From positions 27,320 to 91,319 of the forward strand of contig VMHB01000002.1 in assembly GCA_007378985.1 (NCBI GenBank): a DNA stretch of 64,000 nt. The letters are read 5' to 3'. This DNA is from Parcubacteria group bacterium Greene0714_7. Lineage in GTDB: Bacteria > Patescibacteriota > Minisyncoccia > Phycocordibacterales > Phycocordibacteraceae. The translations under genes and the position numbers were made by a program. Below, one piece after another: positions 12,245 through 58,626 of this stretch. A model generated the notes under the pieces. The model saw only the letters and a program-made list of their open reading frames with translations, had not been told where the DNA came from and did no database searches. Numbering within the stretch: position 1 is the first letter of the stretch; the number at the start of each line of letters is the position of its first letter.

Positions 12245-12271
12245 GATCCCTGCGGATCCGATGAAGCGTCG
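12245..12271 (+). repeat. Two-hairpin UNCG element copy a (GATCC-CTGC-GGATC + CGATG-AAG-CGTCG)
   Basis: It shares structure and sequence with the copies at 54170..54196 and 43817..43843, with compensatory base changes between copies. Confidence 0.65.
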
Positions 12272-12300
12272 CCTAAACACTAAACCCTGTCCACTAACCC

Positions 12301-15186
12301 CTACTGCTTCTGGTTTTCTCGCATCTGATTATACTTTTGGTGAATATCAGCCTCCACAGCTTCGCGGGCTCGACCGTAGCGTTGATACGAAATCTGTTTC
12401 AATGCATCAATGTTCAAGAAGTCACCAGGGATAAATGGAATAGTCTCAATAGTAAAACCGGGGGTAGGTTTTCCTCCAGCAAGGAGCTTCAAATACGAGT
12501 GGAAGTTGTCAATTTTCAGGAAGTCGGAAACCTCAAAGCCTGGAAATTGTTTCGCAATATACTCAGCATCATCGGGACCTACACGAAACACTGCCATGGT
12601 ACCAACGTTACCGAATACTGAGTCTTTAATTTTTGGAAGGAGCTGAGAAACATACTGGTGTGCCATCGTCATAGAGAGGCGAAATTTGCGTGCCTCAGAG
12701 AGAATTGTGGAAATAGTATCGGTCGTAATGTTTTGGAACTCGTCAATGTAGAGATAGAAGTTCGGAGGATTCAAATGCAAATACTCCGTACGCGCAAGTG
12801 CGGTCATCATTATTTTCCCAACAATCACAAGACCAATCAAGTTTGCATTTACATCCCCTAGTCGGCCTTTGGACAAGTTCACAAGAAGAATTTTCTTGTT
12901 GTCCATAATGTCCTTGAAATTAAAGGCCGAGCGTTGCTGACCTATGATGGGGCGCATAATTTCGTTTGCGATGAAGATGTCGAACTTTGAGGTGATATAT
13001 GGAACCACGTTGCGCAAATCTCCTTCTCCGCGCACATTTTCTGCAATATCTTCCCAGAAGTGCGTTACCACAGGATTCTTACAGCGAGACAATTTCAATG
13101 CGCGGAATTCATCGTCAGCCAAAACACGGGAAATATCCATCAAGGTCGAGCCAGTATCAGGATCTTCGAGCACAAGCATTGTGGCATTACGGAAGTACTG
13201 CTCAAAGATAGGACCAAATGCTTCTGGTACATCGCCATATAATTTCTTGAAAATCTTAAACATTTCATCCACCACGAATGTTTTTTGTTCAGGGAAGCGT
13301 GGATCATACTCAAGCATATTGAGCCCCATTGGCCTTGCGGTGTATGCAGGATCAAAGTAAATGAGGTCATCGATACGATCTTTAGGAATACGGGAAAGAA
13401 TCTCCAATACATCCACGCCGTGTGGGTCAATAAAACACACCCCTTCCCCATTCTCAATGTCCTGAATAATCATGTTCTTCAGGAAGTTCGTCTTACCAGT
13501 ACCCGTTTGCCCAATGGTATACATGTGACGCAGGCGATCATCTGGAGTGAAATGAATTGGCGTTGCAATATTTGAGTAACGATTAATGCCAATGACAATG
13601 CCTTTCTCAGGAAGCCCTGGTGGCGCAGGAGCGAGCTTAGCGCTTGCAGTTTTGGCTTCACGAGATGCTGTACCTCCTGCAATAGTGAGATGAAAAATAG
13701 TTGAGAGCTCTGCCAAATTCATAGGCATGAGTGGAATCTTATGCATCAAAGGCGTTGGAGCAGCCTTGCGTGTCCATTCAAGCCACAGCTGATAGAAAAA
13801 TCCTTCGTGTGCTTGACGGTCAAACATGCGGAAGATGAACAAGCGGAGAAATTCCCGCAATTCCTTTCTACCTTTTATATGCTTAAAACGAAGGCGATTC
13901 GCTTTTGCATCTTCATACTGCCCAAAAGTATTTTCGAGTTCTGTAAGAATGGCCATTGCCCTCTCTTTGGTGCGAGCAGACGCAACAATACGTAAATTCA
14001 CTCCCACAATGACACTCTTGAGCTTTTTTGACACTGCGTCAGCCGCAAAAGAATCAATATTCTTACTATCATCCTTCTTTTTTTCTTCAGAGCTTTCCAA
14101 AAAACTAGTGAAGCCTTTGTTCAATCCCTGAAAAAATCGACGCATTGGTGAGTAATGCTCCATATACATATTTTTTCGAAATATGTCATTCGCAGAACCC
14201 TTACCTTTATTAAGTTCGTCTAAAACATAGCGAATACGCTTAGAGTGATAGTCTCCTGCTGGTGCAACGGTAATTTGAAGCGCGGCCCCCTCACCTTCTT
14301 TGGTAATTTTTGAAAGTGCTGCGAGCGTCACATTCATAGGGTCGTGACTAAACTCTTCTGATGTCTTTAAAGGAATTGGTGGCGGGCGCTGATAGTAAGC
14401 AGACGCTGCAACAGTCACACCAAATTGGTTAAAAAGATTGTAGTCATCTTTTTTTTCAACAATACGTGCACGGGGAAACATAGCAAAAATCTGCTTTTCA
14501 AACGTTTCCCGTTTTGCTCGAGGAACTGACAAATAAAAGACCGCTTCCTCTTTAGTGTGCGAGACAGCAATTTCCATTGTGAAATGCTGGAGATGAATTT
14601 TTTTGCGCTTGTGCCAATCTTTCAGGAAAATTGTATCGGGGAGAGCAACAAAAGGAATCATGCTCAAATAAAACTGCTCCATCTGCATGCAAACATCCTT
14701 AAGAGACCCCCCTGGTTTCCCTGGCGCGGCTTCAGGTACGGCTATATCCAAGAGAACAAAATCAAGAGCTACAGCGAGTGGGTCACTAGCGCTCAGCCCT
14801 GGGATTGGATGACCAGCTGTCCGGTACTGCACAAGCAGGCGATGGAAATCATCTTCAAGATGGGGATTATCAATGCGATCGAGCTCCTTCATGACAGCCT
14901 TGAATCCTTGGGTATGTAAAATACCCAACAACTCCTCCATGTCTTTGTCGTTCGAGTCAGGTGTAAGTTCAAGAATGATGCCTTGCTTCTGCTCTTGCTC
15001 TACCCCCTCTGGTGCCTCCGAAAGTGTAGGGAGAACAGATGCTTCGACAGGTAAGGCCGGATCTCCTCGATGCCCCCTTCCTCCACCACCAGAGCGCGCA
15101 GTCTCACGCAACTTCGTCAGTTGATGTTCGGGCGAGAGCTTCGCTGCTTTTGTATCAATTCCTTTGTTTGGATTAAACCCTGGCAT
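12301..15186 (-). CDS. Large P-loop ATPase of the VirD4/VirB4 (T4SS/FtsK-HerA superfamily) type with about 500-aa N-terminal extension
   Basis: Walker A GQTGTGKTNF, then FIDPHGVD (the DPKG-like motif of T4SS ATPases) and Walker B LYIDEFQN. No transmembrane segment is obvious. Confidence 0.5.
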   Translation of the reverse strand: MPGFNPNKGIDTKAAKLSPEHQLTKLRETARSGGGGRGHRGDPALPVEASVLPTLSEAPEGVEQEQKQGIILELTPDSNDKDMEELLGILHTQGFKAVMKELDRIDNPHLEDDFHRLLVQYRTAGHPIPGLSASDPLAVALDFVLLDIAVPEAAPGKPGGSLKDVCMQMEQFYLSMIPFVALPDTIFLKDWHKRKKIHLQHFTMEIAVSHTKEEAVFYLSVPRAKRETFEKQIFAMFPRARIVEKKDDYNLFNQFGVTVAASAYYQRPPPIPLKTSEEFSHDPMNVTLAALSKITKEGEGAALQITVAPAGDYHSKRIRYVLDELNKGKGSANDIFRKNMYMEHYSPMRRFFQGLNKGFTSFLESSEEKKKDDSKNIDSFAADAVSKKLKSVIVGVNLRIVASARTKERAMAILTELENTFGQYEDAKANRLRFKHIKGRKELREFLRLFIFRMFDRQAHEGFFYQLWLEWTRKAAPTPLMHKIPLMPMNLAELSTIFHLTIAGGTASREAKTASAKLAPAPPGLPEKGIVIGINRYSNIATPIHFTPDDRLRHMYTIGQTGTGKTNFLKNMIIQDIENGEGVCFIDPHGVDVLEILSRIPKDRIDDLIYFDPAYTARPMGLNMLEYDPRFPEQKTFVVDEMFKIFKKLYGDVPEAFGPIFEQYFRNATMLVLEDPDTGSTLMDISRVLADDEFRALKLSRCKNPVVTHFWEDIAENVRGEGDLRNVVPYITSKFDIFIANEIMRPIIGQQRSAFNFKDIMDNKKILLVNLSKGRLGDVNANLIGLVIVGKIMMTALARTEYLHLNPPNFYLYIDEFQNITTDTISTILSEARKFRLSMTMAHQYVSQLLPKIKDSVFGNVGTMAVFRVGPDDAEYIAKQFPGFEVSDFLKIDNFHSYLKLLAGGKPTPGFTIETIPFIPGDFLNIDALKQISYQRYGRAREAVEADIHQKYNQMRENQKQ

Positions 15187-15254
15187 ACCTAGTAGTATAA
15201 CGCGTCACTCGCGCAAAATTTTTCTTGAGTAGAAACGAGCGTGTAATATTTCTA

Positions 15255-15806: not shown

Positions 15807-15817
15807 ATAGAGAATAC

Positions 15818-15901
15818 AAAAAAAGGCGCCACTAAAACATAAGATTTACTTATGTTTGGGCGAACAATTACTTTGTAATTGTTTTAGCCGTGGCGCCTTT
15901 T
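15818..15901. terminator. Long hairpin (aaaaggcgccac...gtggcgcctttt) bidirectional terminator downstream of map operon
   Basis: Imperfect stem of about 18 bp flanked by A- and T-runs. Confidence 0.5.
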
Positions 15902-16196: not shown

Positions 16197-16209
16197 ACAA
16201 TCTCTTACT

Positions 16210-16974: not shown

Positions 16975-16983
16975 CCTGTCAAA

Positions 16984-17565: not shown

Positions 17566-17576
17566 GAATACCTATA

Positions 17577-18149: not shown

Positions 18150-18199
18150 ATTTTTACTATTTAGAAGCTACACACAAACGCTAGCCACTAAATCCTATC

Positions 18200-19471: not shown

Positions 19472-19483
19472 GGTAACCAGTGT

Positions 19484-19993
19484 TTAGCTTTTAGCTTTTA
19501 GCGAAGAGACAGCTTTCTTAGAAGGCATAACCTTTCTTGAAACAGGAGCGCGGACAGCACCTCCTGCTTTCTCAATTGTAGCCCGTGCTACTTCAGAGAT
19601 GAAAACATCCTCAAAAGAGAGCTTAACGGTGAGTTCACCTCGCGCAAGAACCTTGATTGGAGGAACCTTACCGGAAATGCGTCGTACAACCCCAGCCTTT
19701 ACGAGCGCGATAGGTGTAACAACATCCCCTGCCTTAAATTGCCTTGAGAGCGTATCAAAGTTCACGGTAGCAAATCTCACGCGAGGTACTGCTGTGCGAG
19801 AACGGTTTCTGCCATATCCACGGCGTTTTGGAATCTTCTTGATGATGTCACGCCATTCTGGGCGGAACTTTGCACCAGCACGGGAATTCTGACCTTTACC
19901 ACCACGACCCGATGTCTTACCTCGTTTTCCCCCACGACCAACACGACGGGTCGCCTTATTGCTCTTTGAACGTGTAAGTGTGTGAAGTTCCAT
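19484..19993 (-). CDS. rplO: 50S ribosomal protein L15 (with C-terminal extension)
   Basis: RRVGRGGKRGKTSGRGGKGQNSRAG signature. Confidence 0.9.
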   Translation of the reverse strand: MELHTLTRSKSNKATRRVGRGGKRGKTSGRGGKGQNSRAGAKFRPEWRDIIKKIPKRRGYGRNRSRTAVPRVRFATVNFDTLSRQFKAGDVVTPIALVKAGVVRRISGKVPPIKVLARGELTVKLSFEDVFISEVARATIEKAGGAVRAPVSRKVMPSKKAVSSLKAKS

Positions 19994-26367: not shown

Positions 26368-27169
26368 TCATTTGTGCAACCTCCGGAGGTTGCACAAATG
26401 AGACACTAAAGCCAAAATGAAAAAATTACAAAATAATACCTTGGAGCTCTTCGACTAAAAGTTTTTTGCTGGTTGTTTTAACAAAATCGGCGTAATTACT
26501 TTTTGCTGTTATAGCAAACTGCCCCGTGATGATCTCGGGCACAATGAGTCCTCCCCATCGGTTCGCATCAGTAAAATCTTGGAGTGACGACCAAGGATAC
26601 TCGGATTCCCTTCCTGACCATTCTCGTATGTCACTGGGGTTTCTATGAATATAGGCGGATGCATATAAAAGCTGGGAATCTGTTTTTACATGCACCGCTT
26701 TGTACGGACCCTGAAATACATGTCCTGAGGTTTCATACTTAGTATTATAATATTTTGTATATCCGTCAGCTACGCGTTGCATGTAGCGTGCCATTCCTCC
26801 TTCAATGGTTTCTTTGACCAACAAGTGAAAGTGGTTCGACATAAGACAAAAGCACACCACTTCCACAAAACGACCCTCAATGATGGCCTCGATATCTTCG
26901 TTAGGGACAGAAAAACCAATATCCGGAACAAAACTTTCTGTAATCCGATGTATGTTTTTAAATTGATGAGGGGATTGGAGGAATAACACATTAAAAAGGA
27001 ATCGACGCCAGTCCCCTTTTTCTTTAAAAATAGTCTGCCTGTGCGCACCGCGATTGAACACATGGTAGTACTCCCCCGGAGCGATTCCTTCTCGTGACTT
27101 TAGCAATACCTTAGCCATCAACTCAGGCTACCACACCTCTGTGCAACCTCCAGAGGTTGCACAGAGAGG
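26368..27169. mobile_element. IS200/IS605-family (RAYT-like) element: Y1 transposase flanked by matching subterminal hairpin palindromes
   Basis: Left palindrome tcatttgtgcaacctccggaggttgcacaaatga (26368..26401) and right palindrome cctctgtgcaacctccagaggttgcacagagagg (27136..27169) share the core TGTGCAACCTCC/GGAGGTTGCACA. They bracket a HUH/Y1 transposase gene. Confidence 0.75.
26426..27121 (-). CDS. HUH Y1 (IS200-like / REP-associated tyrosine) transposase
   Basis: YYHVFNRGAHRQTIF, HUH motif CLMSNHFHLLVK, and Tyr-containing YKAVHV...YIHRNPS. Longer (231 aa) than classic IS200 TnpA. Confidence 0.75.
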   Translation of the reverse strand: MMAKVLLKSREGIAPGEYYHVFNRGAHRQTIFKEKGDWRRFLFNVLFLQSPHQFKNIHRITESFVPDIGFSVPNEDIEAIIEGRFVEVVCFCLMSNHFHLLVKETIEGGMARYMQRVADGYTKYYNTKYETSGHVFQGPYKAVHVKTDSQLLYASAYIHRNPSDIREWSGRESEYPWSSLQDFTDANRWGGLIVPEIITGQFAITAKSNYADFVKTTSKKLLVEELQGIIL

Positions 27170-27197
27170 ATTTTAAAAACAAAAATCCTCCTTCGGA

Positions 27198-30100
27198 CTA
27201 AAATTCATCGAAGCGCGGAGTAACACCTATGGTCACTGACTTTGAACTCGGCACCCCACCGGTTAAACAATTCATTGTGTATGTACTTTGTTGATTTATG
27301 ATCACAGATTGTGCACCTGAAAAAGCGGTTGAAGAAAGTCCCGGACCTGATATTGAACATGAGTCAGGAGTGCCTACCACTCCCCATGACACCGTTGCAG
27401 GGTCACCTTGGCGAACAGTAACGGCTGGGCTAATGTTGAGAGTAATATCGGCAGGGTTTACAGTCACTGTGGCGCTTGAAGATGCACTTCGTGTACCACT
27501 AGTACAAGTGATACCGTAGGTTGTAGTAACTGGAGGGGAAACAGTAACCGAGCCCACAGTTGCACTACCTGTTGGGAAATTAGTTCCCGTACAGGAAGTG
27601 GCGTACGAAGATGTCCAGTCAATTCTAGGAGAAGTCACACCTTTAATGATCGTATTTGGTGTGGCAGTAATCAGCACTGTTGGCGTGTTCTGTATGGTGC
27701 CAGCCCCACAGGTTGCAGTAACCGCACCTGTACCTGATGTCACAATAACTGAAGCCGATTTCGTACCGGCGGTACCGTATGTTTTTGAAACAGTTGCACC
27801 GGTGCCGGTCAGCCCGTCAGTGCCACTCCACACATAGGTATACGAGCCTACACCACCAGAAGGTGTAACGGTCCATATTAATGAGTCTCCAACATACCCC
27901 GTGCTTGGTGACGGAGAGCACGAGGCTGTGAGCGTGCCTGGGTTCACGGTGAGCGGTGTCCATGCACTGCAGTTATCAAGTTCGTTGGATTCATTCACTT
28001 CATTGAGCGGAGTGTCGGCACAAAAACGCATCTGGTACGCACCCGGCGAAAGAAATGTATAGCTTCCTGTTTCTGTACCACTTCCACCGGCTGAAATCGA
28101 TATTCGACTCAAAGCAATTTTTATTGATGTATTAGCTTCAGCAAAGTGAATAAAGAGACTGAAGATGCGGCCCCAGATAGAATCTAATTGAGTGAGATAA
28201 TTATTAAGACAGGCGCTGTCCGAAGCGAGGCACACATACATTCTTGAACCAAATACTGGAGTCGCTACTCCACCAGTATTATTAACACCAGCAGTAAATG
28301 TGCTGTTTACTCCTGCCGTCACACTAAGCGGTGTCAGGCTACCGGTGGTTAGATCAGACAAAGAAACACCAACCACCACAGAATTGGAGCAACTCGCTGT
28401 TATTGATGCCGGTGCCGATGCCGTTGCAAGACCTCCAAAATAATTATGTCTCGTTGTGTTACCGCTAGTGGAGGTTTTCGAGGCAAGAGAAGCATTTGAA
28501 TATGCTTCGTAGTGATAGTAGGTATTAACTGGCTGTCCAACCGAATTCAAAGTCTCTCGTACATCAACACTACAGCAACCGCCCGCAGGTGTTATTTCCG
28601 AACACACTCCTGCCATGGCAGAGTTAGCGCCACCCGTAAAGCCCACACCATCCTCTGTGCTGCCATAACTACCTACTTTTGTACCTCCAGAGCAGTGCTT
28701 TTCTCCTTGGAGCGTAACAGAAGTTACACCGGACGGACTAGTAACAGTAACTGAAGCTGTTTTTGTGCCAACTGTTGTATATATTTTTGAGATCGACGCA
28801 ACAGTACCAGAGAGACTATCAGTACCACTCCATGAATACGTGTACGAACCAGCTCCCCCTGATGCAGATGCAGTCCAAGTCACAGGACTACCGGTATATA
28901 CGCTCGTTGGAGATACTGAACATGACCCCGAAAGAACGCCGGAGGAGGTTGAATTTACTTGAACATTTGCGGTAGCAAAAGCGGTCTGGGGAGTCACGGC
29001 AGGGGAAGCGCCGACACATGAATAGATATCAGTATTGATGTTGCATGCACTGATGGTGTTCACCTTACATGTTGGGATGCTACAAGCCTTTCCTGTTGGA
29101 TTCGGAGGGCAAGTAGGTACGCTTGAATATGCCTTGTTTGGATCTGTGAGTGGGCAAGCAAAATCGCTTATATCAGACTCTGAGTATTGCCATATACCTG
29201 ACGATACTGCGCTAGCTCCTGTACAAGTAATAGAATAGTTTGTGGTGGCACTTAACGCCCCGGTAGAAATAGAGCCTGATGTATTCCCGCCAGTTTCAAA
29301 TCCACTACCAACACAAGAAACTGCATTAGTTGAGGACCATGTGAGAGTAGCTGAAGATCCAGAATTCAAACTTGTTGGAGTTGCAGATAACGAAACAGTC
29401 GGTGTGGGGATTGAGCTTACCGTGACTGTTTGAGATGCCGACGCAGACCCACCAGCGCCAGTACATGACACAAGATAGCTGGTTGTTTGTGATGGAGTAA
29501 CTGATACAGAGCCTGCGTTTGCTGACGCTGTAGAAAAATTAATGCCTGTGCATGATGTTGCATTCGTTGAACCCCATGTGAGCGTTGACGATGAACCTAC
29601 TACAAGTGAAGTTGGGTTTGCAGAAAGTGTTGCAGTTGGTGCAATAATTGGAGCGCTGACGGTCACCGTTGCTGAAGAAGAAACTGTTTGAATACCATCA
29701 GTGCAGGTAATCGAGTATGTTATTGAGGAAGCAGGTGAAACAATAAGCGAACCTGCAGTAGCGCCTCCAGTTGAAAAATTAGTACCCGTACATGAGGTCA
29801 CATAGTCCGAAGTCCATGTTAGAAGAGATGAACCACCACTGCTTATAGAAGACGGTGTTGCAATAATTCCTACATATAGAGTTGTAGGTTCCTCGATACA
29901 ACCATTCCCTTCATCAATGCGCGCGACTTGATACGAACTTTGCACCACATAACTATCTCCTCCATACACCGCACGAAACGCCGCTTCACCTGCACTACCA
30001 GGAGGGAAAGGGTTAGTCACTATTGTGTAGTCATACTCCCATGTCGTACCACTACACCCCCCAACCTCGCCACCTCCTCCTCCATCAAGGTTCGGGCCAG

Positions 30101-30212
30101 CATGTGTTAACTGAGGAACGGCACTAAACAGAACAATTGAAAAAAAAGCACCCATAAAAAAGATTTTAAAAGCGGGGAAAGCAAACCGGCGGAAGGCTAT
30201 CATTGAACCCAT
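27198..30212 (-). CDS. Giant secreted Cys/Ser/Thr-rich multi-repeat surface protein (paralog A), Ig-like two-Cys repeats + PKD-like modules, C-terminal ...TPRFDEF
   Basis: Signal peptide. About four 85-aa repeats of the form TLTWxSTNATSCTGxxFSTGG...VSVxPxxTTxYxxxCTGxGG...TVTV. Two YTY(S/V)WSGTD(S/G)L(S/T)G PKD-like motifs and Cys-rich linkers. Paralogous to the adjacent gene. Confidence 0.8.
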   Translation of the reverse strand: MGSMIAFRRFAFPAFKIFFMGAFFSIVLFSAVPQLTHAGPNLDGGGGGEVGGCSGTTWEYDYTIVTNPFPPGSAGEAAFRAVYGGDSYVVQSSYQVARIDEGNGCIEEPTTLYVGIIATPSSISSGGSSLLTWTSDYVTSCTGTNFSTGGATAGSLIVSPASSITYSITCTDGIQTVSSSATVTVSAPIIAPTATLSANPTSLVVGSSSTLTWGSTNATSCTGINFSTASANAGSVSVTPSQTTSYLVSCTGAGGSASASQTVTVSSIPTPTVSLSATPTSLNSGSSATLTWSSTNAVSCVGSGFETGGNTSGSISTGALSATTNYSITCTGASAVSSGIWQYSESDISDFACPLTDPNKAYSSVPTCPPNPTGKACSIPTCKVNTISACNINTDIYSCVGASPAVTPQTAFATANVQVNSTSSGVLSGSCSVSPTSVYTGSPVTWTASASGGAGSYTYSWSGTDSLSGTVASISKIYTTVGTKTASVTVTSPSGVTSVTLQGEKHCSGGTKVGSYGSTEDGVGFTGGANSAMAGVCSEITPAGGCCSVDVRETLNSVGQPVNTYYHYEAYSNASLASKTSTSGNTTRHNYFGGLATASAPASITASCSNSVVVGVSLSDLTTGSLTPLSVTAGVNSTFTAGVNNTGGVATPVFGSRMYVCLASDSACLNNYLTQLDSIWGRIFSLFIHFAEANTSIKIALSRISISAGGSGTETGSYTFLSPGAYQMRFCADTPLNEVNESNELDNCSAWTPLTVNPGTLTASCSPSPSTGYVGDSLIWTVTPSGGVGSYTYVWSGTDGLTGTGATVSKTYGTAGTKSASVIVTSGTGAVTATCGAGTIQNTPTVLITATPNTIIKGVTSPRIDWTSSYATSCTGTNFPTGSATVGSVTVSPPVTTTYGITCTSGTRSASSSATVTVNPADITLNISPAVTVRQGDPATVSWGVVGTPDSCSISGPGLSSTAFSGAQSVIINQQSTYTMNCLTGGVPSSKSVTIGVTPRFDEF

Positions 30213-30254: not shown

Positions 30255-33020
30255 CTAAAACTCTTCGTACGCTGGAAGCAGTTTAACTGTTATTGATTTT
30301 GAGGTGACTCCTCCGCCTGTGGTGCATGAGAGCGTATAGGTGCTTTCTTGACCAATGACCACAGACTGTGAACCTGAAAAAGCGCTTGATGAAAGTCCCG
30401 GACCACTTATGAGGCACGTATCAGGACTTCCTGATACTGACCAACTAATGGTTACTGAATCATTACGACGAACTGATGTGTTTGGGGATGCAGTAAGCAC
30501 TAGATCGGCCACATAGACCGTAACAACCGCGCTCGAATAAACACTCTTTGATCCATTCGTACAAGTAAGATCGTATGTAGTGGTGTTAGTTGGTGTTACT
30601 GATACAGCACCAGATGTTTGACCTCCTGTTGCAAAGCTAGTGCTCGTACACGATGTTGCGTTTGTCGAAGACCATGTAAGTTGCGACGCGTTTTGCCCGC
30701 GAATAATTGAGCTCGGGGTCGCGCTTAAAAGTGCCGTAGGAGAAGCTGAAATTGAGGTTGAATTGCTACACGCCTGAGTGACAGACTGTGTACCTGAAGT
30801 AATACTTACAGAGCCTACTTTGGTTCCCACTGTTGTGTATTGCCGTACAACCGACTGCGTTGTTCCTGACAGACCGTCTGTACCACTCCACGAATACACA
30901 TATGAACCAGTGCCCCCCGCAGGAGACGCCGTCCACGTTATGTTGTCGTTGGTGTATCCAGAAGTAGGTGTGACTGCACAAGAAGTGCTAAGTGGTGAAC
31001 TTGAAACAATCACCGCAGTCCACGCACCACAATTATTTGTTTCATTGGACTCGTTGATAACACCGGAACCCGCAGATGAATTTTTGTCGGCGCACGCTCG
31101 CAGGTACCACGTGCCTGCAGAAGGGAACGCGTACGAAAGCGTAGTTACATCAGATCCGTTCGCTGAAATGTTTGGTGACGTGTCGGTACCAATATCTACC
31201 GTGTTCGCACCGCTTGAAGATGTGGCTCGCTGAAAAAGATTAGTGAACCCGCTACCTGTCGCAGGGTTACCGACGTTCGTGATTGTTGCAGAAAATGTTT
31301 TTGTGACATTAGTAACTGCGGATGTCGGTGAAATAGCGCCCGCAGTAAGATCTGACAAAACGACACTCACTGCAACTGAATTTGAACAACTTGCCGTTGT
31401 TGACATGGCGTTTGTTTTGAAACCTGCGGAATAATAGTAATTGTTCGTGTTACCTCCTGAAACAGTAGAATACGAATCCTTGGTTACAAGAGATGCGCCG
31501 GAGTAGGATGTCCATTGATAATACGTGTTGACCGGTTGTCCGCCCGAACTCAACACTTCTTTTGCGGACACACTGCAACACCCTCCAGCTGGAGTGATAC
31601 TGTCACACATTGCACTGTCACCGCTTGAATTATATACAGCACCATCTTCGGTAGTACTTTGACTTGCAACCAACGTGCCACCGGAACATTGCCTGTTGCC
31701 TTGGAGATTGGTTGTGCTCGTGTTGGTCACAGTAACCGAACCAGTTTTCGTACCAGTTATTGAGTATGTTTTTGAAATTAACGCACTAATTCCCGACAAT
31801 CCGTCCGTACCACTCCACGAATACGAGTAGACAGGTACACCGCCAGACGCAGATGCATTCCAAGTAACCGTCTCTCCCGTATACACGCTTGTGGGAGACG
31901 CCGTACACGATGCCTCAAGAGGAGCATTTGAAACGGTAACGTATGCGCTGCCTGATACACTTGGCGGAGGCGACGTTACTTGGCACGAATAGAGCTCTGT
32001 AGTAATACCACATCCAGGACCTATCGTATTTACCTTGCAAGTTGAAGGTGGCGATGTACATGATTTACCTTGAGGACTTGCTGGGCAATCTGGTACAGCG
32101 CTATACACATTGTTGTTGGACGATACAGGACACGATAGATCCGAGTAATCACTTTGATAGTATTGCCATGTGCCCGTACCACCACCCGAAGAACCGGTGC
32201 ATGTAACCGTGTAGTTTGTACTAGCGTTTGGTGTGATGGTTACCGAGCCCGATGTGGTACCGGCGGTGTCAAATTGAGTGCTCGAACAATATGAAGCGTT
32301 GCTTGAAGTCCACGAAAGGGTTGTGCTTCCGCCGACAGCAACGGTAGAGGGTGACGCGGTCAACGATATACTTGGCGACGAACTTGGGGGCGTTACCGTA
32401 AGAGTTGCCGAAGCAGTTGCCGTACCTCCCGCACCAGTACAACTTACTGAATAGTTGCTGGTTTGCGGTGGTGAGACGGACACTGTACCAGAGAGTGCCC
32501 CGCCCGTACTGAACCCCGTTCCCGTACATGATGTTGCATTTGTGGAACTCCACGTGAGTGCAGATGAGTACCCTGCCGTTATAGAAGTCGGTGACACAGA
32601 AAGTGTGGCAACCGGTGTAGGAGAAACATTTGTGTAAGTGAGGGTGTATTTTTTGCTCGCACTCGAAATACCTGTGCCACTGTACAGTCCATAAGAAACT
32701 CCCCACGCAGACGGAGTGGATACCAGCGATGCCTGAATACAGTAGGTATTCGGAGTATTGTAATTACTTGGCAAGAAAGAGCCAGTAATAAATCCCCATG
32801 CGAGCACCGACCACGACGGCGCTGGTCCATCGCTACTATCTCCGCCAAGTTCTGAAATAAATGCCCCTGTACATTGTCTATTTGCAGTGGTGACTGCACC
32901 ACTGCTCGTTGGTGGATTGGGATACGAGTATGCATGTGCCAATCCCGACACCCCAAAAACACCTACAACAAAACTTGCAAAAATTACAGTTTTTATTAGT
33001 GAGGTAACCGATGGGCACAT
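30255..33020 (-). CDS. Giant secreted Cys/Ser/Thr-rich multi-repeat surface protein (paralog B), C-terminal ...LPAYEEF
   Basis: Same domain order as paralog A. The start is placed at the internal Met giving the signal peptide MCPSVTSLIKTVIFASFVVGVFGVSGLAHA; the ORF track extends to 33080. Confidence 0.75.
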   Translation of the reverse strand: MCPSVTSLIKTVIFASFVVGVFGVSGLAHAYSYPNPPTSSGAVTTANRQCTGAFISELGGDSSDGPAPSWSVLAWGFITGSFLPSNYNTPNTYCIQASLVSTPSAWGVSYGLYSGTGISSASKKYTLTYTNVSPTPVATLSVSPTSITAGYSSALTWSSTNATSCTGTGFSTGGALSGTVSVSPPQTSNYSVSCTGAGGTATASATLTVTPPSSSPSISLTASPSTVAVGGSTTLSWTSSNASYCSSTQFDTAGTTSGSVTITPNASTNYTVTCTGSSGGGTGTWQYYQSDYSDLSCPVSSNNNVYSAVPDCPASPQGKSCTSPPSTCKVNTIGPGCGITTELYSCQVTSPPPSVSGSAYVTVSNAPLEASCTASPTSVYTGETVTWNASASGGVPVYSYSWSGTDGLSGISALISKTYSITGTKTGSVTVTNTSTTNLQGNRQCSGGTLVASQSTTEDGAVYNSSGDSAMCDSITPAGGCCSVSAKEVLSSGGQPVNTYYQWTSYSGASLVTKDSYSTVSGGNTNNYYYSAGFKTNAMSTTASCSNSVAVSVVLSDLTAGAISPTSAVTNVTKTFSATITNVGNPATGSGFTNLFQRATSSSGANTVDIGTDTSPNISANGSDVTTLSYAFPSAGTWYLRACADKNSSAGSGVINESNETNNCGAWTAVIVSSSPLSTSCAVTPTSGYTNDNITWTASPAGGTGSYVYSWSGTDGLSGTTQSVVRQYTTVGTKVGSVSITSGTQSVTQACSNSTSISASPTALLSATPSSIIRGQNASQLTWSSTNATSCTSTSFATGGQTSGAVSVTPTNTTTYDLTCTNGSKSVYSSAVVTVYVADLVLTASPNTSVRRNDSVTISWSVSGSPDTCLISGPGLSSSAFSGSQSVVIGQESTYTLSCTTGGGVTSKSITVKLLPAYEEF

Positions 33021-33027
33021 AGAAATT

Positions 33028-33687
33028 TTATTGTGGGGTAACGACATACGGCGCTGATGACACAAATGTAATGGCGCCATCTATCGAATACAAATTAAAA
33101 TTATTTGGACGACCAGTGTGGATTGCAAACATAGTTGGTGACACAAACCCGATACCACTAACATACGTAGGGAGGGCAGGAATTTTCAACGAACCAAAGT
33201 ATGATACGCTCGCGCCACCCTCATACACCTTGAACACATCAAATTGGTTGGTGATCTGATTAAACAATACCGCAGCACTTCCATCAGGAGCAACCGCACC
33301 AATATCAGGAGTAATACCTTCTTGTGCAATGAGGACAAGCTCATTTTTTGCTGTTGGATTGCGCCAAACTAGCCCTTTCTCGGTAACTACAAGAATCATA
33401 CCGCTCGGAAGTGTGACTTTATTTGAGACTGAGAGACTTTGTTGTGGTGCCGTGGCAGTACGCACTTCATTCGCAGGATTCAAGACATACCATTGATACG
33501 TATCAGTTTCATAGATTGAAAATACTTGATCTGCCATTCGCTCGTCCACCTCTTTTGATACCCATTCAGAAAAAAATGTACGCAAAATAGGAACTGCATA
33601 CAGAAGACCGCAGAGTGCACCTAAAATGAGTGCAATAGAAAGTGTGATACGCATTGGTCGAGAGAGTCTCTGTAATATCTGACTCAT
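33028..33687 (-). CDS. Hypothetical membrane-anchored (N-terminal TM) extracytoplasmic protein co-located with the giant protein pair
   Basis: 219 aa with TM helix ITLSIALILGALCGLLYAV then a soluble domain. No family recognised. Confidence 0.55.
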   Translation of the reverse strand: MSQILQRLSRPMRITLSIALILGALCGLLYAVPILRTFFSEWVSKEVDERMADQVFSIYETDTYQWYVLNPANEVRTATAPQQSLSVSNKVTLPSGMILVVTEKGLVWRNPTAKNELVLIAQEGITPDIGAVAPDGSAAVLFNQITNQFDVFKVYEGGASVSYFGSLKIPALPTYVSGIGFVSPTMFAIHTGRPNNFNLYSIDGAITFVSSAPYVVTPQ

Positions 33688-42947: not shown

Positions 42948-43010
42948 CAATAGGGTATAGGGTATAGGGTAACAGCATTAAAATCTAGTGGCTAAACCCT
43001 AGTGGCTAGT
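42948..43010. repeat. Divergent-promoter-region copies of the CCCTAA-like repeat (minus: ccaatagggtatagggtatagggtaac; plus: ctaaaccctagtggctagtggc)
   Basis: Each copy sits in sense orientation upstream of its own divergent gene. Confidence 0.7.
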
Positions 43011-43816: not shown

Positions 43817-43843
43817 GTTCCCTTCGGAACCGATGAGACATCG
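43817..43843 (+). repeat. Two-hairpin UNCG element copy c (GTTCC-CTTC-GGAAC + CGATG-AGA-CATCG)
   Basis: Stem base pairs co-vary relative to copies a/b (GATCC/GGATC becomes GTTCC/GGAAC). Confidence 0.65.
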
Positions 43844-43860: not shown

Positions 43861-44577
43861 ATGAGTCGACAAAACAATTTCTGGAATAAAGAATACGGCA
43901 AATCAAACCGCACCGGTGGGGCAAACCCTCACCTTGCTCTTTCGGTTGAACCATCTGAAGATTTGGAAAAGTTCGGACGATTTTTAATGCGTGAGTATGG
44001 AAAAAAATTCCTCAATGTAACTGCGCAGGCGCTCGACATTGGATGTGGCAACGGGCGCAATCTCATTTATCTTGCAAACACATTTGGTATGCGGGGGGTT
44101 GGATACGATCTTTCAGAGGTAGCTATCACTGTCGCCAAAAAAGCAGGGGAAGGCTTGCCACTCAAATTTTTTGTGCAAGACATGGAAAAACCAATTCCCT
44201 TGCCTGACGCATCAGTCACCATTGCACTCGACATGATGAGTTCGCATGTATTGAAGACTGCCGAGCGTGAACAACTCCGAACTGAAATACTCCGTGTCTT
44301 AAAACCAGGAGGATGGCTTTTCTTTAAATCGTTCCTTCTTGATGACGATTCTCATGCAAAACGCCTACTCCGTGAAAACCCAGGGGAAGAAGCGGGGATG
44401 TACATTCATCCAGAAATTCACACCGCCGAGTATGTCTGGACAGAAGAAGCACTGCGCGAGTTCTTTGAACCCTATTTCACTATCCACAAAATAGAGAAGT
44501 CTTTCAAACATAAGCACGCTGACGGAAGTGCATGGAAGCGTCGTACCATTGTTGCGTACCTAGAGAAGAGTAACTAG
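43861..44577 (+). CDS. Class I SAM-dependent methyltransferase
   Basis: LDIGCGNGRN motif I. Confidence 0.8.
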   Translation: MSRQNNFWNKEYGKSNRTGGANPHLALSVEPSEDLEKFGRFLMREYGKKFLNVTAQALDIGCGNGRNLIYLANTFGMRGVGYDLSEVAITVAKKAGEGLPLKFFVQDMEKPIPLPDASVTIALDMMSSHVLKTAEREQLRTEILRVLKPGGWLFFKSFLLDDDSHAKRLLRENPGEEAGMYIHPEIHTAEYVWTEEALREFFEPYFTIHKIEKSFKHKHADGSAWKRRTIVAYLEKSN

Positions 44578-44595
44578 GTAATAGGAATCCTCCCT

Positions 44596-44630
44596 AAACC
44601 CTAGTGGCTAACAACTAAACCCTGAGCGTG
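44596..44630 (+). repeat. CCCTAA-like repeat copy (cctaaaccctagtggctaacaactaaaccctgag) upstream of rpmB
   Basis: Motif family. Confidence 0.7.
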
Positions 44631-46015: not shown

Positions 46016-46591
46016 ATGCACACTGCAAAAAAATTCAACTTTGGAAACTTAGACGGTATTTCGCCAAAACAGCTTGAAGTACACATCAAACTCTATGAGG
46101 GCTATGTAAAATTCTTAAACACACTTGAGGAAACTGCTGTAGACTTAAAAAAAGATTCTGAAAAAAACGCATACGCTCTCGCTGAAGTAACTCGACGCAT
46201 CGGATTTGAGTGGAACGGCATGCGAATGCACGAACACTACTTCTCACAGTGGGAGGGAACGCCCGCCCCTATCGAAGGCCCTCTGAAAGATGCGCTGGCG
46301 GCACAATATGGCTCATACGAATCTTGGGAGAACGAATTCAAAGCAGTTGGCATGATGCGTGGTATTGGATGGGCGATGCTTTCGTATGACGCAACAACCA
46401 AGAACTTTCTCACTCACTTTGTTGCTGACCACGAGCTAGGACAACTCAATGACACAAAGACAATCCTCGCTCTTGATATGTGGGAACACGCCTACATGGT
46501 GGATTACACTCCAGCCGAAAAAAAGACCTATATAGAGGCATTCTTTAAAAATTTGAATGGCGCTGTGGTTCAATCACGTTTCCCTTCCTGA
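46016..46591 (+). CDS. sodA: Fe/Mn superoxide dismutase
   Basis: DMWEHAYMVDY C-terminal signature and N-terminal metal-ligand His region. Confidence 0.8.
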   Translation: MHTAKKFNFGNLDGISPKQLEVHIKLYEGYVKFLNTLEETAVDLKKDSEKNAYALAEVTRRIGFEWNGMRMHEHYFSQWEGTPAPIEGPLKDALAAQYGSYESWENEFKAVGMMRGIGWAMLSYDATTKNFLTHFVADHELGQLNDTKTILALDMWEHAYMVDYTPAEKKTYIEAFFKNLNGAVVQSRFPS

Positions 46592-47954
46592 AACGGAAAA
46601 ACAACAAGCCTGCCACTCCATACGCAAACCCAAGCACCATCAAAAGTGGCCACATCCACTCTCGTGGAATAGGGAGAGAGGCAAACGGAAGTATCCCAAA
46701 AAATGTTGCGATAGAAATAATATAAGAAAGGATTCCGTACGCAAAGATGCTTAGTGGGAAAGCGAGTACCGGAGAGACAATTGAGGTAATCGACGCAAAG
46801 AAACCAACAAACATAGCGAGCGGAACTGCGGGTAAGACAAGTGCATTTGCTGGAAGAAATACGAGAGACACTGCGCCTACAGAAAATATAAGAAGTGGCA
46901 ATACCGTCACCTGCGTTGCAAGAGTAGTTGAAACAATTTCACGAAATGGGAAATATTTAAAATCAGGAATGAACTTCAAATGGTCTGCAATTTTTGCAGA
47001 AAATAATATAAGTCCGAGCGTTGCAAGAATAGAGAGTTGGAATGAGAGATCATACAAAACAATAAACGGATTCATGACTGCCATTGTGGCGGCAGCAATG
47101 GCGAGCATACGTAGTGCTGCCTTTGGCCGATGCAAAACAGTCGCAACCATCATGAGGAGTGCCATGATGAGTGCGCGAATAGTTGTCTCAGATCCGCCAG
47201 TCATCACTGCAAAGCCAATAACAAAAACCGCAGAGAAACTATATGCAACTTTGCGTGAAAATATTTTTAGAAAAACAAAAGAAATCCACTGAATCACGAG
47301 CGCAACGTTGTAGCCAGAGAGAACAATAATGTGCACGACTCCTGCATTTCGAAATGCTCCCGTTATCTTTTCACCCAACGATTGTTTTTCACCGAGAAGT
47401 AAACCCGCAAGAAGTGCGGATTGAGGTTCTGGAACTGCACGCTCAATTCCTTTAATAAATAAATGTTTAACAGATAGAAGTCCCGCAACAATTGGATGCC
47501 CCTCTCCTGTTGCCAGTTTCGTAACCTGCGGAAATGAAATGATGTAGAGAATGTTATGTGCACGAAGATACTTTGGATAATTAAATGTTCGCCCTGAGTC
47601 AGTTTCAAAAGGCTCAGGTTTTTTAAGTTTTCCTTTTACACTAATGCGATCACCATAGACGGCAGTCTCAAACGAATCCGCAAAGAGAAGTACTCGTACT
47701 TTCTCTTGAGCAGAAACACCATTCAACTTTTGCACTTTCACAACAAGGTGTGTGGTGCGTTCACGCTGGTCAGAGTCTCTCACTACAACGCCTTCAATGA
47801 CAACACTAGTATCAACTGAGTCTTCAAAAATCGAAGGAAGTTTTTCGGGTACCAATACTGAATACACTCCTGCACCAACTACGAGCCCGACACAAAGTAT
47901 CGGCACGACATTTCGAATAAAAAAACTCTTGAAAAACTCTGTATGATATATCAT
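46545..47954 (-). CDS. comEC: ComEC/Rec2 DNA-uptake channel (membrane domains only)
   Basis: DUF4131-like N-terminus plus polytopic competence domain (VVHIIVLSGYNVALV). No fused MBL domain. Confidence 0.8.
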   Translation of the reverse strand: MIYHTEFFKSFFIRNVVPILCVGLVVGAGVYSVLVPEKLPSIFEDSVDTSVVIEGVVVRDSDQRERTTHLVVKVQKLNGVSAQEKVRVLLFADSFETAVYGDRISVKGKLKKPEPFETDSGRTFNYPKYLRAHNILYIISFPQVTKLATGEGHPIVAGLLSVKHLFIKGIERAVPEPQSALLAGLLLGEKQSLGEKITGAFRNAGVVHIIVLSGYNVALVIQWISFVFLKIFSRKVAYSFSAVFVIGFAVMTGGSETTIRALIMALLMMVATVLHRPKAALRMLAIAAATMAVMNPFIVLYDLSFQLSILATLGLILFSAKIADHLKFIPDFKYFPFREIVSTTLATQVTVLPLLIFSVGAVSLVFLPANALVLPAVPLAMFVGFFASITSIVSPVLAFPLSIFAYGILSYIISIATFFGILPFASLPIPREWMWPLLMVLGFAYGVAGLLFFRFRKGNVIEPQRHSNF

Positions 47955-47964
47955 ACAGAGTTTT
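47931..47964. promoter_or_regulatory. Perfect palindrome aaaaactctgtatgatatatcatacagagttttt at ComEC start (contains the TGTATGATATATCATACA box)
   Basis: A 34-bp perfect palindrome with the same 18-nt core as 11150..11169. It could act as an operator and/or a bidirectional terminator between comEC and rnhA. Confidence 0.5.
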
Positions 47965-47994
47965 TAGGAGAGAAAAATGCAGGCATACTGACAA

Positions 47995-50165: not shown

Positions 50166-50256
50166 TGTTTAGGGATAAGTGTTTAGCGTTTAGGGAAATT
50201 CCGAAGCAAAATCATGAGCTGTTGCTCTATACGCTAAACCCTATACACTAAACGCT
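50166..50256. repeat. Divergent-region CCCTAA-like repeat copies (gtgtttagggataagtgtttagcgtttaggg / cgctaaaccctatacactaaacgct)
   Basis: The G-rich copy is adjacent to recJ (minus) and the C-rich copy ends at the HIT gene ATG. Confidence 0.7.
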
Positions 50257-52849: not shown

Positions 52850-52901
52850 ATTCATTGAGAAATCGTAACATGTTTGAGAAGGGTTTAGGAAAGAGCTTTG
52901 A

Positions 52902-52945
52902 ATTGGAATTTTCCCTAAACGCTAACCACTAAACCCTAACCCCCA
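52902..52945 (+). repeat. CCCTAA-like repeat copy (ccctaaacgctaaccactaaaccctaacccccactag)
   Basis: Motif family, located at the 3' end of the pilin-like gene. Confidence 0.7.
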
Positions 52946-52952: not shown

Positions 52953-54134
52953 CTAGTCCTGCGTACGCCAATCAATAATACGAAATCCACTGGCTGTTGC
53001 TGGAGTGAATGGTGGTGGCAATTGTGCCAAGAGGGCATCGTGGACATCTGTCCGAGTGCTATAGCCCGAAATAAACGCGCCAGAGGATGTCCATTTTGTT
53101 TCAACGGTACCAGGCGATGAAAATGTACCGAAGGTATTTAGCGTGGAACGAAGTACATATGATTGCAGGTCGATAGGAACAGCGTGCGTACCTGAGGAAT
53201 CATAGCGATGTCGCCCAAAATGGCCAGTGCCTGCCACAAAAACACCATTCATCTGCAACACATCGGGTGATTGGAGTGAAATCAATACTGATCGCTCGGC
53301 AATTGCGGTCAACCCATCATCGTATGCATGCGCATAGGTAATATTTCCAGTAATAACAATGTCTGGCTTAATACTGGAGCTCGCCACATTTGCAGCGGCG
53401 AATGTAACCTTTCCAGATACGACCCCCTCAAGCCAAACAGAATCTTCTACAAATACAACGGGACATCCTGCAGGTATGGCGTAATTTATTGTGGCGCCAA
53501 TTGAAGCAATTATTGTGTTTTCTTCCTCCCAACCTTCATCATCTGAATATCCCATTATCTCAGTAACTGCAGTAACAGGACTTGCATCAAATGTTCCGTT
53601 CGACTTGAAAACAATTTTGTACCCATGCGCTCCACCAGATGTAGGAGCAAGATATACGCCCGATGCTTGCGCATATGTTTTTAAGTTTGTGAGGGTGGAG
53701 GTAACCACTGTGGAATCAGTCTTTGCTGGACTTGTTGATGCCGCCAACGTCTCCGTCCCATACTGAGCAATAAGTGTTTTTGTGTGTGATGCATTTTCCA
53801 GTGCCCATCCTGTTGAACGCACTGATGCGGATGTAAGTACTCCACAAGAAGTTATATCTGAAATAGCGAGAGAAAAATTCCCGACAGTATTTCCGTTTTC
53901 TGGATCCAAAACTGCATGGACATACGGCCCAGACAAACCCGTGCCATCTTGTACATCAGTAGGAAACTCTGAGAAGTGCCACCGATAGTACTCAATTCCC
54001 GCTTCAGAAATACCTAGTGCTTTGTCGGCCTCAGATCCAAAACGCTCTTTAGTACGCTCAAGTGTGAGCGCACTCATAAAGTCGGAGAGCAGGAAGAAAA
54101 AAACAGCAGAAGCGATAAGTACAAAAAGAGTCAT
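52953..54134 (-). CDS. Large pilin-like/pseudopilin-like protein with N-terminal hydrophobic segment (type IV pilus cluster)
   Basis: Start set at MTLFVLIASAVFFFLLSDF; the ORF-track N-terminal 31 aa are encoded by the intergenic two-hairpin repeat and are probably not coding. Gly/Ser/Thr-rich ectodomain. Confidence 0.5.
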   Translation of the reverse strand: MTLFVLIASAVFFFLLSDFMSALTLERTKERFGSEADKALGISEAGIEYYRWHFSEFPTDVQDGTGLSGPYVHAVLDPENGNTVGNFSLAISDITSCGVLTSASVRSTGWALENASHTKTLIAQYGTETLAASTSPAKTDSTVVTSTLTNLKTYAQASGVYLAPTSGGAHGYKIVFKSNGTFDASPVTAVTEIMGYSDDEGWEEENTIIASIGATINYAIPAGCPVVFVEDSVWLEGVVSGKVTFAAANVASSSIKPDIVITGNITYAHAYDDGLTAIAERSVLISLQSPDVLQMNGVFVAGTGHFGRHRYDSSGTHAVPIDLQSYVLRSTLNTFGTFSSPGTVETKWTSSGAFISGYSTRTDVHDALLAQLPPPFTPATASGFRIIDWRTQD

Positions 54135-54169
54135 AAACCCTCCCGCACTTCTTGCGCGTCTCCCTAAGT

Positions 54170-54196
54170 GATCCCTTCGGATCCGATGAAGCATCG
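54170..54196 (+). repeat. Two-hairpin UNCG element copy b (GATCC-CTTC-GGATC + CGATG-AAG-CATCG)
   Basis: Perfect stems with a C(UUCG)G tetraloop; followed by a CCCTAA-like motif (gacccctaaacgccataccct). Confidence 0.7.
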
Positions 54197-54226
54197 CCTG
54201 ACCCCTAAACGCCATACCCTGCTTCC

Positions 54227-54823
54227 TCATATCGCCTTAAGATTACGAAGTGTGGTGGTAGCGGTGAGTATGAACGGGGTGGTCATCCCCGGAGCAAGTA
54301 CATCAATAGAAACTAGTATGGATGCGACATCCTTCACTCGGTTCATATCAGTAACTTCAATGCCGTCCCGATCGTAATAGCGGAAAAGTGAAATGGAGTT
54401 AGCGCTGTTGTTCATGTATGTTGCCAAGGATTCACTCACTGGCGTACCACTATATGTTGGCGGAGTACCTGCGCTCACTTGGCTCCGAGAAAGTGTTGTT
54501 CCATTAATTTGATACTGAAAACGCGTCGCTCCAATGCTATTTGGAATATTACTAAAAAAAGTTAACGAGGAGGTGGACATAGAAACAATTGGATACGAGC
54601 CGTCATTGCCATATGCAACACTCCGCAAATCTGTCATTAGCGTAGTAAGAGCAGACCTAGCACTGCTGATTTGAGTTAGAGCACGAGTCCCTGTGTTATT
54701 TGTTTTGTAGAGCGCCAATACCGAATTTGACGCACTCACCACAATCAATGAAACAACCGCGAGGGTCACCAAAACCTCTATCAAACTCATTGCTCGTTTT
54801 GTGTTATTTTTATGGCGCAACAT
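54227..54823 (-). CDS. Type IV prepilin-like protein
   Basis: Leader ...KRA|MSLIEVLVTLAVVSLIV with Glu at +5 after the cleavage site. Confidence 0.65.
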   Translation of the reverse strand: MLRHKNNTKRAMSLIEVLVTLAVVSLIVVSASNSVLALYKTNNTGTRALTQISSARSALTTLMTDLRSVAYGNDGSYPIVSMSTSSLTFFSNIPNSIGATRFQYQINGTTLSRSQVSAGTPPTYSGTPVSESLATYMNNSANSISLFRYYDRDGIEVTDMNRVKDVASILVSIDVLAPGMTTPFILTATTTLRNLKAI

Positions 54824-55292: not shown

Positions 55293-55297
55293 ACTTC

Positions 55298-56512: not shown

Positions 56513-56576
56513 TTTTTCAGTATAACGTCAAAAAATAATTCCTAGCATGCTAATTGGTACACCATGTGTACCTAAG

Positions 56577-58313: not shown

Positions 58314-58339
58314 TCTTTTATAAGAATAACATCGCGGAG

Positions 58340-58375
58340 CAGGGTTGAGCATTTAGTGAATAGGGTTTAGTGGAG
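58340..58375. repeat. CCCTAA-like repeat copy (G-rich orientation gcagggttgagcatttagtgaatagggtttagtgg) upstream of pilB
   Basis: Motif family. Confidence 0.6.
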
Positions 58376-58626
58376 GAAAATTGAACTGCTTCAATTTTCC
58401 TCCGATCCCGTTTCGGGAACCGCCGATGTTGAGCTGAAGCGAGACAGGCGGTAGGAGGGCGAAATATTAAAAATAAAATTAAAAATAAAATATCAAGAAG
58501 AAAAATTAAAGATAACGCAAAAAAATACCAAAAAGTGGCACTAAAAAATGCCTAAGGGGGAGTACTTGACAGAGTGATTTAAGTGTAGTACCCTGCGCGA
58601 ATTAGAAATACAAAGAAATTATATAT

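Follow-up and report, generated by a model that had tools for sequence, protein, structure and literature searches.

The stretch of DNA considered here, which we refer to as the window, comprises 64,000 nt of contig VMHB01000002.1 of Parcubacteria group bacterium Greene0714_7 (forward strand, positions 27,320 to 91,319). Its genes include those for NDK, a TraD/VirD4-like ATPase, RlmB, a type IV pilus operon, ComEC, ribosomal-protein operons and NusA. Between these genes lie three copies of a 31-nt unit for which we use the shorthand E: two adjacent 5-bp hairpins, with a T before them and CCT(A) after them. E represents a previously undescribed repeat family of a well-known kind, found in a narrow clade of Candidatus Paceibacterota. 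We propose that it is probably a short interspersed palindromic repeat of the repetitive extragenic palindromic (REP) or BOX-module type, in the sense that it works like a REP and not that it is one. In the literature searched we found no description of REP-like interspersed repeats in genomes of the candidate phyla radiation (CPR)/Patescibacteria.

The repeat E in the window and its relatives

The copies in the window are given below, with their scores from a covariance model which was built from 36 copies of E.

12244..12274, + strand: copy a, T-GATCC-CTGC-GGATC-CGATG-AAG-CGTCG-CCT, with a U.G wobble in stem 2; 55 bits
43816..43846, + strand: copy c, T-GTTCC-CTTC-GGAAC-CGATG-AGA-CATCG-CCT; 51.6 bits
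54169..54199, + strand: copy b, T-GATCC-CTTC-GGATC-CGATG-AAG-CATCG-CCT; 59.8 bits

An initial annotation of the sequence had placed the three on the + strand at 12245-12271, 43817-43843 and 54170-54196, coordinates which are exact, and the U.G wobble that it noted in stem 2 of copy a is present. It also had the hairpins followed by CCTGA, which is true of copies b and c but not of copy a or of the family consensus, where the sequence is CCTAA. A degenerate 30-mer pattern, with three or fewer mismatches permitted, matched these three sites in the window and no others, and had no match in 100 dinucleotide-preserving shuffles of the window. The covariance model likewise returned only copies a, b and c. 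A degenerate fourth copy had been reported as well:

58414..58450, + strand: a different two-hairpin structure, in the divergent spacer between pilB and 58627(+)

We do not retain this site as a member of the family. It was unmatched by the covariance model even at E-values up to 10, it has no relatives in ~550 kb of related loci, and with ViennaRNA it folds into a larger and different structure.

Copy a lies in the spacer between the stop of the TraD/VirD4-like gene (12301-15186, - strand) and the start of ndk (11552-12187, - strand), and is antisense to both. Copy c is in the sense orientation between rlmB (43002/43035-43775, + strand) and a gene for an S-adenosylmethionine (SAM)-methyltransferase, the ATG of which, at 43861, is 14 nt downstream of the repeat. 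Copy b is antisense, within the type IV pilus operon on the - strand, 25 nt beyond the stop (54227-54229) of a prepilin-type gene and separated by ~35 nt from the ATG at 54134, where the next gene likely begins. It falls inside the mechanically longest open reading frame (ORF), 52953-54230, and the proposal that this pilin-like ORF is over-extended where copy b overlaps it is a reasonable one. The start is most likely placed too far upstream, because the internal ATG at 54134 opens a hydrophobic N-terminus (MTLFVLIASAVFFFLL...). Around copy a the window shares 95-98% identity with an 8-kb locus of JAGOSG01 (Candidatus Paceibacterota Gw_Eff_bin_311). For copies b and c, orthology to copies elsewhere was rejected, their flanking proteins having given no tblastn match in the related loci.

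Relatives were sought in 185,579 species genomes with a pattern in which most of stem 2 was set and three pairs of stem 1 could vary. This gave 45 loci, 33 of them in four Patescibacteria metagenome-assembled genomes (MAGs), namely SCTS01, JAZJYZ01 (one 748,944-bp contig), JBBAAE01 and JAGOSG01, and two in Saccharibacteria-labelled contigs; the rest were obvious chance matches in high-GC genomes, without a second hairpin. A scan of metagenomes, for which stem 2 was allowed to vary in its loop and its three inner pairs, contributed 15 chance matches and ~35 additional real copies, among the latter at least 16 from one more genome, Ga0207952. The covariance-model search that had been suggested in the initial annotation recovered every copy found by pattern, together with divergent and decayed copies that the patterns had missed. 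In total, roughly five related genomes of Patescibacteria yielded ~70 distinct copies, at a frequency of roughly 10-20+ per ~0.75-Mb genome; the density is 3 copies in the 64-kb window and 9 in the 749-kb contig of JAZJYZ01. The consensus is (A)T-G[A/G/T]TCC-CT[T/A/G]C-GGA[T/C/A]C-CGA[T/C]G-RRR-C[A/G]TCG-CCTA. A phage or viral origin was considered and rejected, the scan of viral contigs having given a single chance match in a contig of 61% GC.

Pairing, position and turnover

The initial annotation had allowed that further copies might fail to preserve pairing. They do preserve it: over 68 distinct copies, which provide 680 pair cells, 98.4% of the cells are standard pairs. The change from GATCC/GGATC to GTTCC/GGAAC, described there as compensatory, is a real change of pair and generalises across the family. 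Five of the ten pairs of E have been changed on both sides, and double-changed cells number 47 as against 11.8 +/- 2.7 in shuffles (none of 500 reaches 47). When the 3' partners are slid by 1-3 columns, pairing falls to 22-40%. Pair 2 of stem 1 is A-U in 40 copies, G-C in 14 and U-A in 12, with all three variants present within each genome, and pair 4 of stem 2 is U-A in 44 and C-G in 18, with U.G (three copies), C.A (one) and C.C (two) as intermediates. A divergent copy, L088:260-286 (CATCC-CTGC-GGATG TGACG-AGG-CGTCA), has two further compensated pairs.

Judged from these alignments, the complementarity of E would require intrastrand pairing, in single-stranded DNA or in RNA, because substitutions are symmetric and always compensated and three different pairs occur at one position inside single genomes. 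This argues against an operator in double-stranded DNA. The possibility that the adjacent palindromes bind a dimeric regulator or a nucleoid-associated protein as duplex has in its favor that both are perfect (14 and 13 bp) and that orientation independence and a conserved sequence would be expected of such a site. Nevertheless we regard it as quite improbable, since the pattern of change just described is not what is expected of half-sites contacted by a protein, and E is not placed consistently with respect to promoters or starts.

The two adjacent 5-bp hairpins are the minimum free energy (MFE) as well as the centroid structure of copies a, b and c (ViennaRNA; -8.4 to -8.8 kcal/mol), with a fold z of about -1 to -2. 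DNA parameters give the same two-hairpin fold. The reverse strand folds equivalently, the minus-strand RNA being slightly more stable (-11 kcal/mol). Both the MFE structure and covariation, which joins position 2 to position 13, place CUNC in the loop of stem 1, with a C-G pair closing it on a 5-bp stem. The C(UNCG)G tetraloop of the initial annotation must therefore be withdrawn. Every copy does contain the letters C-U-N-C-G-G of UNCG-tetraloop hairpins, with U, A or G as N, but that register is incompatible with a 5-bp stem, because the next pair is C.A; it would leave a stem of 1 bp. Neither does E resemble an intrinsic terminator: the stems are only 5 bp, and no U-tract follows on either strand, the E strand continuing with CCUAAAC and the other with an AUUUAG-type sequence.

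All copies of E are intergenic, and apparent overlaps with genes are due to over-extended mechanical ORFs. Sixty-four copies were classified against their flanking genes: between co-oriented genes 22 are sense and 22 antisense, while seven lie between convergent and four between divergent genes, and nine have a gene call on one side only. The sense and antisense classes have one shared consensus, loops and flanks included. The side of E that bears the heptamer arrays described below is always at a gene border, either a same-strand start (median 38 nt) or an opposite-strand stop (median 23 nt). The flanking genes are functionally unrelated, among them ndk, pilus genes, a methyltransferase gene, smc and ftsA. 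A replichore-oriented element, whether Chi/KOPS-like or a single-stranded target on the lagging strand, was rejected: in the orientation of E, the GC skew of 65 copies is negative for 37 and positive for 28, with a mean of -0.006. All three copies of the window are on its C-rich + strand.

The spacer between rnc and smc was compared in three congeners. E is present in the sense orientation in locus L030 (GGTCC/CGACG allele), in the antisense orientation in L008 (GATCC/CGATG allele, 10 nt past the rnc stop), and is missing from L083. The flanking genes of the three are 88-93% identical and the remainder of the spacer cannot be aligned. Elsewhere, compared with the orthologous L041:2389, L029:3866 has acquired substitutions that break pairs, although the flanks of the two are ~90% identical. 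Between the orthologs L088:1131 and L084, the sole difference within E is one compensatory pair (GGTCC/GGACC versus GATCC/GGATC). Finally, an indel of ~150 nt adjoining a tRNA gene carries a divergent copy of E. It is thus shown that copies come and go, are flipped and are replaced at a pace far above that at which the flanking genes diverge; individually they are dispensable and quickly replaced or flipped, and yet they still obey the hairpin rule. Self-matches in blastn also revealed a short internal duplication of the 3' region of rnc at ~951-1304 of L030, which could be real or an artefact of assembly.

These data bear on the part, if any, played by E in RNA. A strand-specific cis-regulatory RNA, that is, a 5'-UTR element, a site for an RNA-binding protein or a riboswitch-like leader of the downstream gene, would account for the 22 copies that lie 17-100 nt upstream of a co-oriented start and are followed by a G-poor leader, for the three U.G intermediates on the E strand, and for the strong covariation. 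It is unlikely, however, in view of the 22 copies that are antisense to both neighbors and as conserved as the sense copies, the opposite orientations of E in the rnc-smc spacer of congeners, the lack of any functional relation among neighboring genes, and the occurrence of two mismatches on the E strand (C.A and A.C, one of each). Furthermore, Rfam gave no gathering-score match in the window and only chance-level matches around copy a (E-value about 8). A hammerhead or other small ribozyme, brought to mind by the resemblance to CGAUGAG...AAAC, was rejected, no Rfam match being obtained even at E-values up to 10.

In the initial annotation compensation was taken to point to selection on RNA structure. 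Covariation does support selection for pairing, but it does not single out RNA, since hairpins in single-stranded DNA are equally expected. A strand-specific role in RNA is argued against, because the direction of transcription makes no difference to the conservation of the loops and of the unpaired flanks (T at -1, CCT at +1 to +3). The serious rival is an orientation-independent pair of RNA hairpins, which would protect the 3' ends of upstream mRNA or the 5' ends downstream, or serve as an RNase processing site, and would have spread by benefit to the host. Both strands form the two hairpins (the minus-strand RNA at the -11 kcal/mol given above), antisense copies lie at a median of 23 nt after a stop and sense copies at a median of 38 nt before a start, and a compensatory change has occurred at an orthologous site (L088:1131/L084). 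Moreover, REPs of E. coli are known to stabilise upstream mRNA. We consider this explanation possible but not probable, for it leaves unexplained why the loops (CUNC and the purine triloop) and flanks (T and CCT) are conserved alike both ways. The two 5-bp stems are also weak (-8 to -11 kcal/mol, z about -1 to -2), only ~3 of roughly 60 spacers in the window have E, one ortholog is decaying (L029), and in the rnc-smc spacer the repeat is dispensable.

Heptamer arrays and other features of the window

E is usually embedded, co-directionally, in degenerate arrays of heptamers (CCCTAAA / CGCTAAA / CACTAAC). At least two C-type heptamer cores, the CCTAA of E itself being counted, are found within 38 nt downstream in 37 of 70 copies, compared with 0.5% of background windows; G-type cores are downstream of one copy in 70. 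The arrays that adjoin the copies of the window are as follows.

12272..12305, + strand: C-strand heptamer array (CCTAAAC ACTAAAC CCTGTCC ACTAACC CC), directly 3' of copy a and up to the stop codon of the opposite-strand gene
12205..12231, - strand: heptamer array with its C-strand on the - strand, just upstream of the ndk start
54200..54219, + strand: short degenerate C-strand heptamers (GACCCCTAAACGCCATACCC), 3' of copy b

The arrays at 12205-12231 and 12272-12305 can pair to give a long hairpin with copy a at its apex. Such an arrangement applies to copy a and a few others and was rejected as a general property of E; on average, the duplex energy between the two flanks equals that of the shuffled control (-17.1 versus -16.0 kcal/mol).

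Could E be an independent small RNA gene, the CCCUAAA-type tail of which pairs with UUUAGGG heptamers in other transcripts? E is always co-oriented with its downstream C-strand heptamers, complementary G-strand arrays exist in many spacers, and the orientation of E is independent of the neighboring genes, all of which would agree with this. Inspection of the sequence, however, shows neither promoter-like nor terminator-like signals beside E: a U-tract is lacking, and the sequence upstream matches a -10 region poorly. In sense copies, in addition, the heptamer tail runs straight into the start codon of the next gene. We consider a small RNA gene very improbable.

Units larger than a single E also occur. 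Direct tandems, 42-48 nt apart, were found in L028, L011 and L010, and head-to-tail composites (E'-E) in L050 and L090. A composite joins a degenerate copy, which is cut short after loop 2, head-to-tail with a full copy of the GTTCC type. The positions of composite units, two of them in one genome, are:

L010, 3756-3814: composite E unit
L050, ~6490-6575: composite E unit
L090, ~4732-4800: composite E unit

Since composites recur, the unit that is copied can exceed one E. The window lacks a longer left-hand module, GTCAGGTTYCAGCTTTYAGCTTTTAAC, which adjoins some of the copies of E in other genomes. Another module, the palindromic GTGCTAAACCCGGGTTTAGCAC, is recurrent in related genomes and consists of a C-strand heptamer joined to its own complement:

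L083, ~11880-11900 (reverse complement): module GTGCTAAACCCGGGTTTAGCAC
L036 and L026, just upstream of their E copies: module GTGCTAAACCCGGGTTTAGCAC

Its recurrence means that the spacers carry several repeat modules and not E alone. Single copies of E outside the Paceibacterota were observed at 206-243 of L039 (Saccharibacteria-labelled MAG CAZHJZ01) and in L038. The L039 copy has an additional compensated pair (GTCCC/GGGAC) and no heptamer context, and it adjoins a classical bidirectional terminator. These two copies may reflect horizontal transfer or a wider and more divergent family.

Degenerate tandem heptamers are widespread in the spacers of the window, where there are 23 paired-core matches as against 5.4 in shuffles. 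The arrays are located at:

9160-9193, 11484-11548, 12205-12231, 12272-12305, 18168-18199, 19472-19499 and 42956-42975: heptamer arrays
44595-44626, 50167-50254, 52880-52942, 58355-58381, 59130-59162 and 60429-60461: heptamer arrays, continued

The 3' end of a C-strand array adjoins a same-strand start codon or an opposite-strand stop codon. Because the period is 7 and each unit contains TAA (C strand) or TAG (G strand), three units supply stop codons in all three frames and in both directions. Shine-Dalgarno (SD)-like motifs were found at only two of 66 predicted starts (40 nt upstream, loose GGAG/GAGG/AGGA test), and the leaders upstream of the starts in the window are rich in A, T and C and poor in G. 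This suggests that translation initiation in this Paceibacterota lineage may be SD-independent. Arguably, the all-frame-stop heptamer arrays and the scarcity of SD motifs are as interesting as E itself.

Several other features of the window were recorded. A perfect 18-bp palindrome, TGTATGATATATCATACA, occurs twice (11150-11178 and 47940-47968), in each case just upstream of a gene on the - strand, one for a beta-CASP/RNase J-like nuclease (9718-11091) and the other for ComEC (46545-47954); it is a candidate for a shared operator or promoter. The strong hairpin TGTGCAACCTCC(G/A)GAGGTTGCACA is present at 26373-26417 and 27140-27184, in the spacers flanking gene 26426-27118, and may be a terminator or a leader structure. 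On the - strand, 27198-30212 and 30255-33080 are adjacent paralogous ORFs of ~1000 amino acids with internal DNA repeats and weak matches to CARDB/PKD, which likely encode large surface proteins. Also on the - strand, 231-7372 is an operon of subunits resembling those of complex I and group-4 [NiFe]-hydrogenases: a fusion of the 49-kDa and 30-kDa subunits, a 20-kDa subunit, a NuoH-like protein and two antiporter-like subunits. For a CPR genome such membrane bioenergetics is unusual.

Comparison with known repeats and propagation of E

E has much in common with the REP/REPIN-RAYT systems of Enterobacteria and Pseudomonas. In both, the repeats are of ~30 nt, strictly extragenic and present in tens of copies per genome in either orientation; the hairpins are kept by compensatory changes, conserved unpaired nucleotides adjoin them, and variants coexist in one genome. 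Both are also gained and lost rapidly between close relatives, and their hairpins end up in intercistronic mRNA. The differences are that E consists of two short tandem hairpins where a REP is one longer imperfect palindrome, and that E has T and CCT(A) flanks and no GTAG/CTAC foot motif, CTAC occurring only as one of three loop variants. Its higher-order forms are direct tandems and head-to-tail composites, whereas REPINs are inverted doublets; it is embedded in heptamer arrays, and it resides in a streamlined CPR genome. A search for a RAYT in ~35 of ~66 window ORFs, and in 548 kb with an approximate query, was negative. Membership of E in the REP/RAYT family proper is not established.

The pneumococcal BOX (boxA-B-C), RUP and SPRITE, the enterobacterial ERIC and the Neisseria Correia/NEMIS elements are likewise intergenic, hairpin-forming and modular, with variable numbers of sub-repeats, and the combination of E with variable heptamers and the composite E'-E units recalls modularity of the boxB type. 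However, they measure 100-200 nt and have terminal inverted repeats and/or defined ends, whereas E is 31 nt long and has no terminal inverted repeats. The arrays surrounding E are similar to the cyanobacterial STRR sequences in that they are tandem heptamers between genes, are degenerate and differ in number from strain to strain. They differ in sequence (CCCTAAA-type as opposed to CCCCAGT and similar) and phylum, and STRR are not known with an embedded and conserved double hairpin. The DNA uptake sequences (DUS/USS) occur about once per kb, also in genes; E is found three times in 64 kb and never in a coding sequence. TIGR-Tas arrays were rejected as a parallel, E being dispersed and not in 36-nt arrays.

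Of the roles put forward in the initial annotation (protein-binding motif, RNase processing site or mobile REP-like unit) it is the last that fits ~70 intergenic copies in both orientations. We favor a REP-like repeat because orientation is random, the unpaired letters are alike in both orientations, the neighbors are unrelated, presence, absence and inversion are seen at one locus, and modular and tandem forms exist. E would then be a module of heptamer-array spacers, propagated or homogenised at the level of DNA, whether through an enzyme that acts on single-stranded DNA and recognises hairpins or through recombination or gene conversion among arrays. Only those copies in which both hairpins and the flanking T and CCT are intact would be kept or copied. 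The mRNA from either strand would carry two small hairpins between cistrons and, by analogy with the REPs of E. coli, any effect on the stability or processing of transcripts is probably secondary.

A number of observations weigh against a REP-like repeat. Scans with Pfam/NCBIfam of ~35 of the ~66 window ORFs revealed no transposase or RAYT-like domain. There is no transposase between inverted copies, this position in L037 being occupied by ybeY and rpsU, and tblastn of 548 kb with an approximate IS200 TnpA query, which is a rough test, found nothing. By the criteria for miniature inverted-repeat transposable elements, E lacks terminal inverted repeats, and around it there is no clear target-site duplication; such a duplication is not callable because the CCTAA on both sides of many copies is the heptamer core. 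The change compensated in situ and the ratio of three U.G to one C.A also fit selection at the level of RNA. Lastly, the invariance outside the two variable pairs was partly forced by the exact-match patterns, and the rate of decay is under-sampled, although positions which the patterns left free (G1, T3-A12 and the A-T of stem 2) are still almost invariant.

A further, rather unlikely reading goes beyond a REP-like repeat, making E the recognition hairpin of a system that acts on single-stranded DNA or RNA in a Paceibacterota lineage and, together with the heptamer arrays, actively remodels the spacers of its ultra-streamlined genomes, which have almost no SD motifs. One candidate agent would be a domesticated HUH/Y1-type enzyme or another hairpin-binding enzyme, and the spacers would be "cassettes" with stops in all frames and unstructured leaders, installed, flipped and exchanged between operons. 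If true, this would constitute a new mode of spacer engineering in CPR bacteria and not passive junk.

The genomes of CPR/Patescibacteria are regarded as extremely streamlined, and for this reason a family such as E is unexpected in them. Since a conserved and structurally constrained repeat turns over faster than the genes around it, E shows that an active repeat ecology is sustained even in genomes of ~0.75 Mb. In practical terms E offers a marker for strain typing, and it would be one cause of over-extended ORF calls, as at copy b, and of the mis-assembly of spacers in MAGs. To know the factor recognising E would be to uncover a new mobilisation system or, alternatively, a new layer of RNA biology between cistrons, in organisms whose translation apparently starts without SD sequences.

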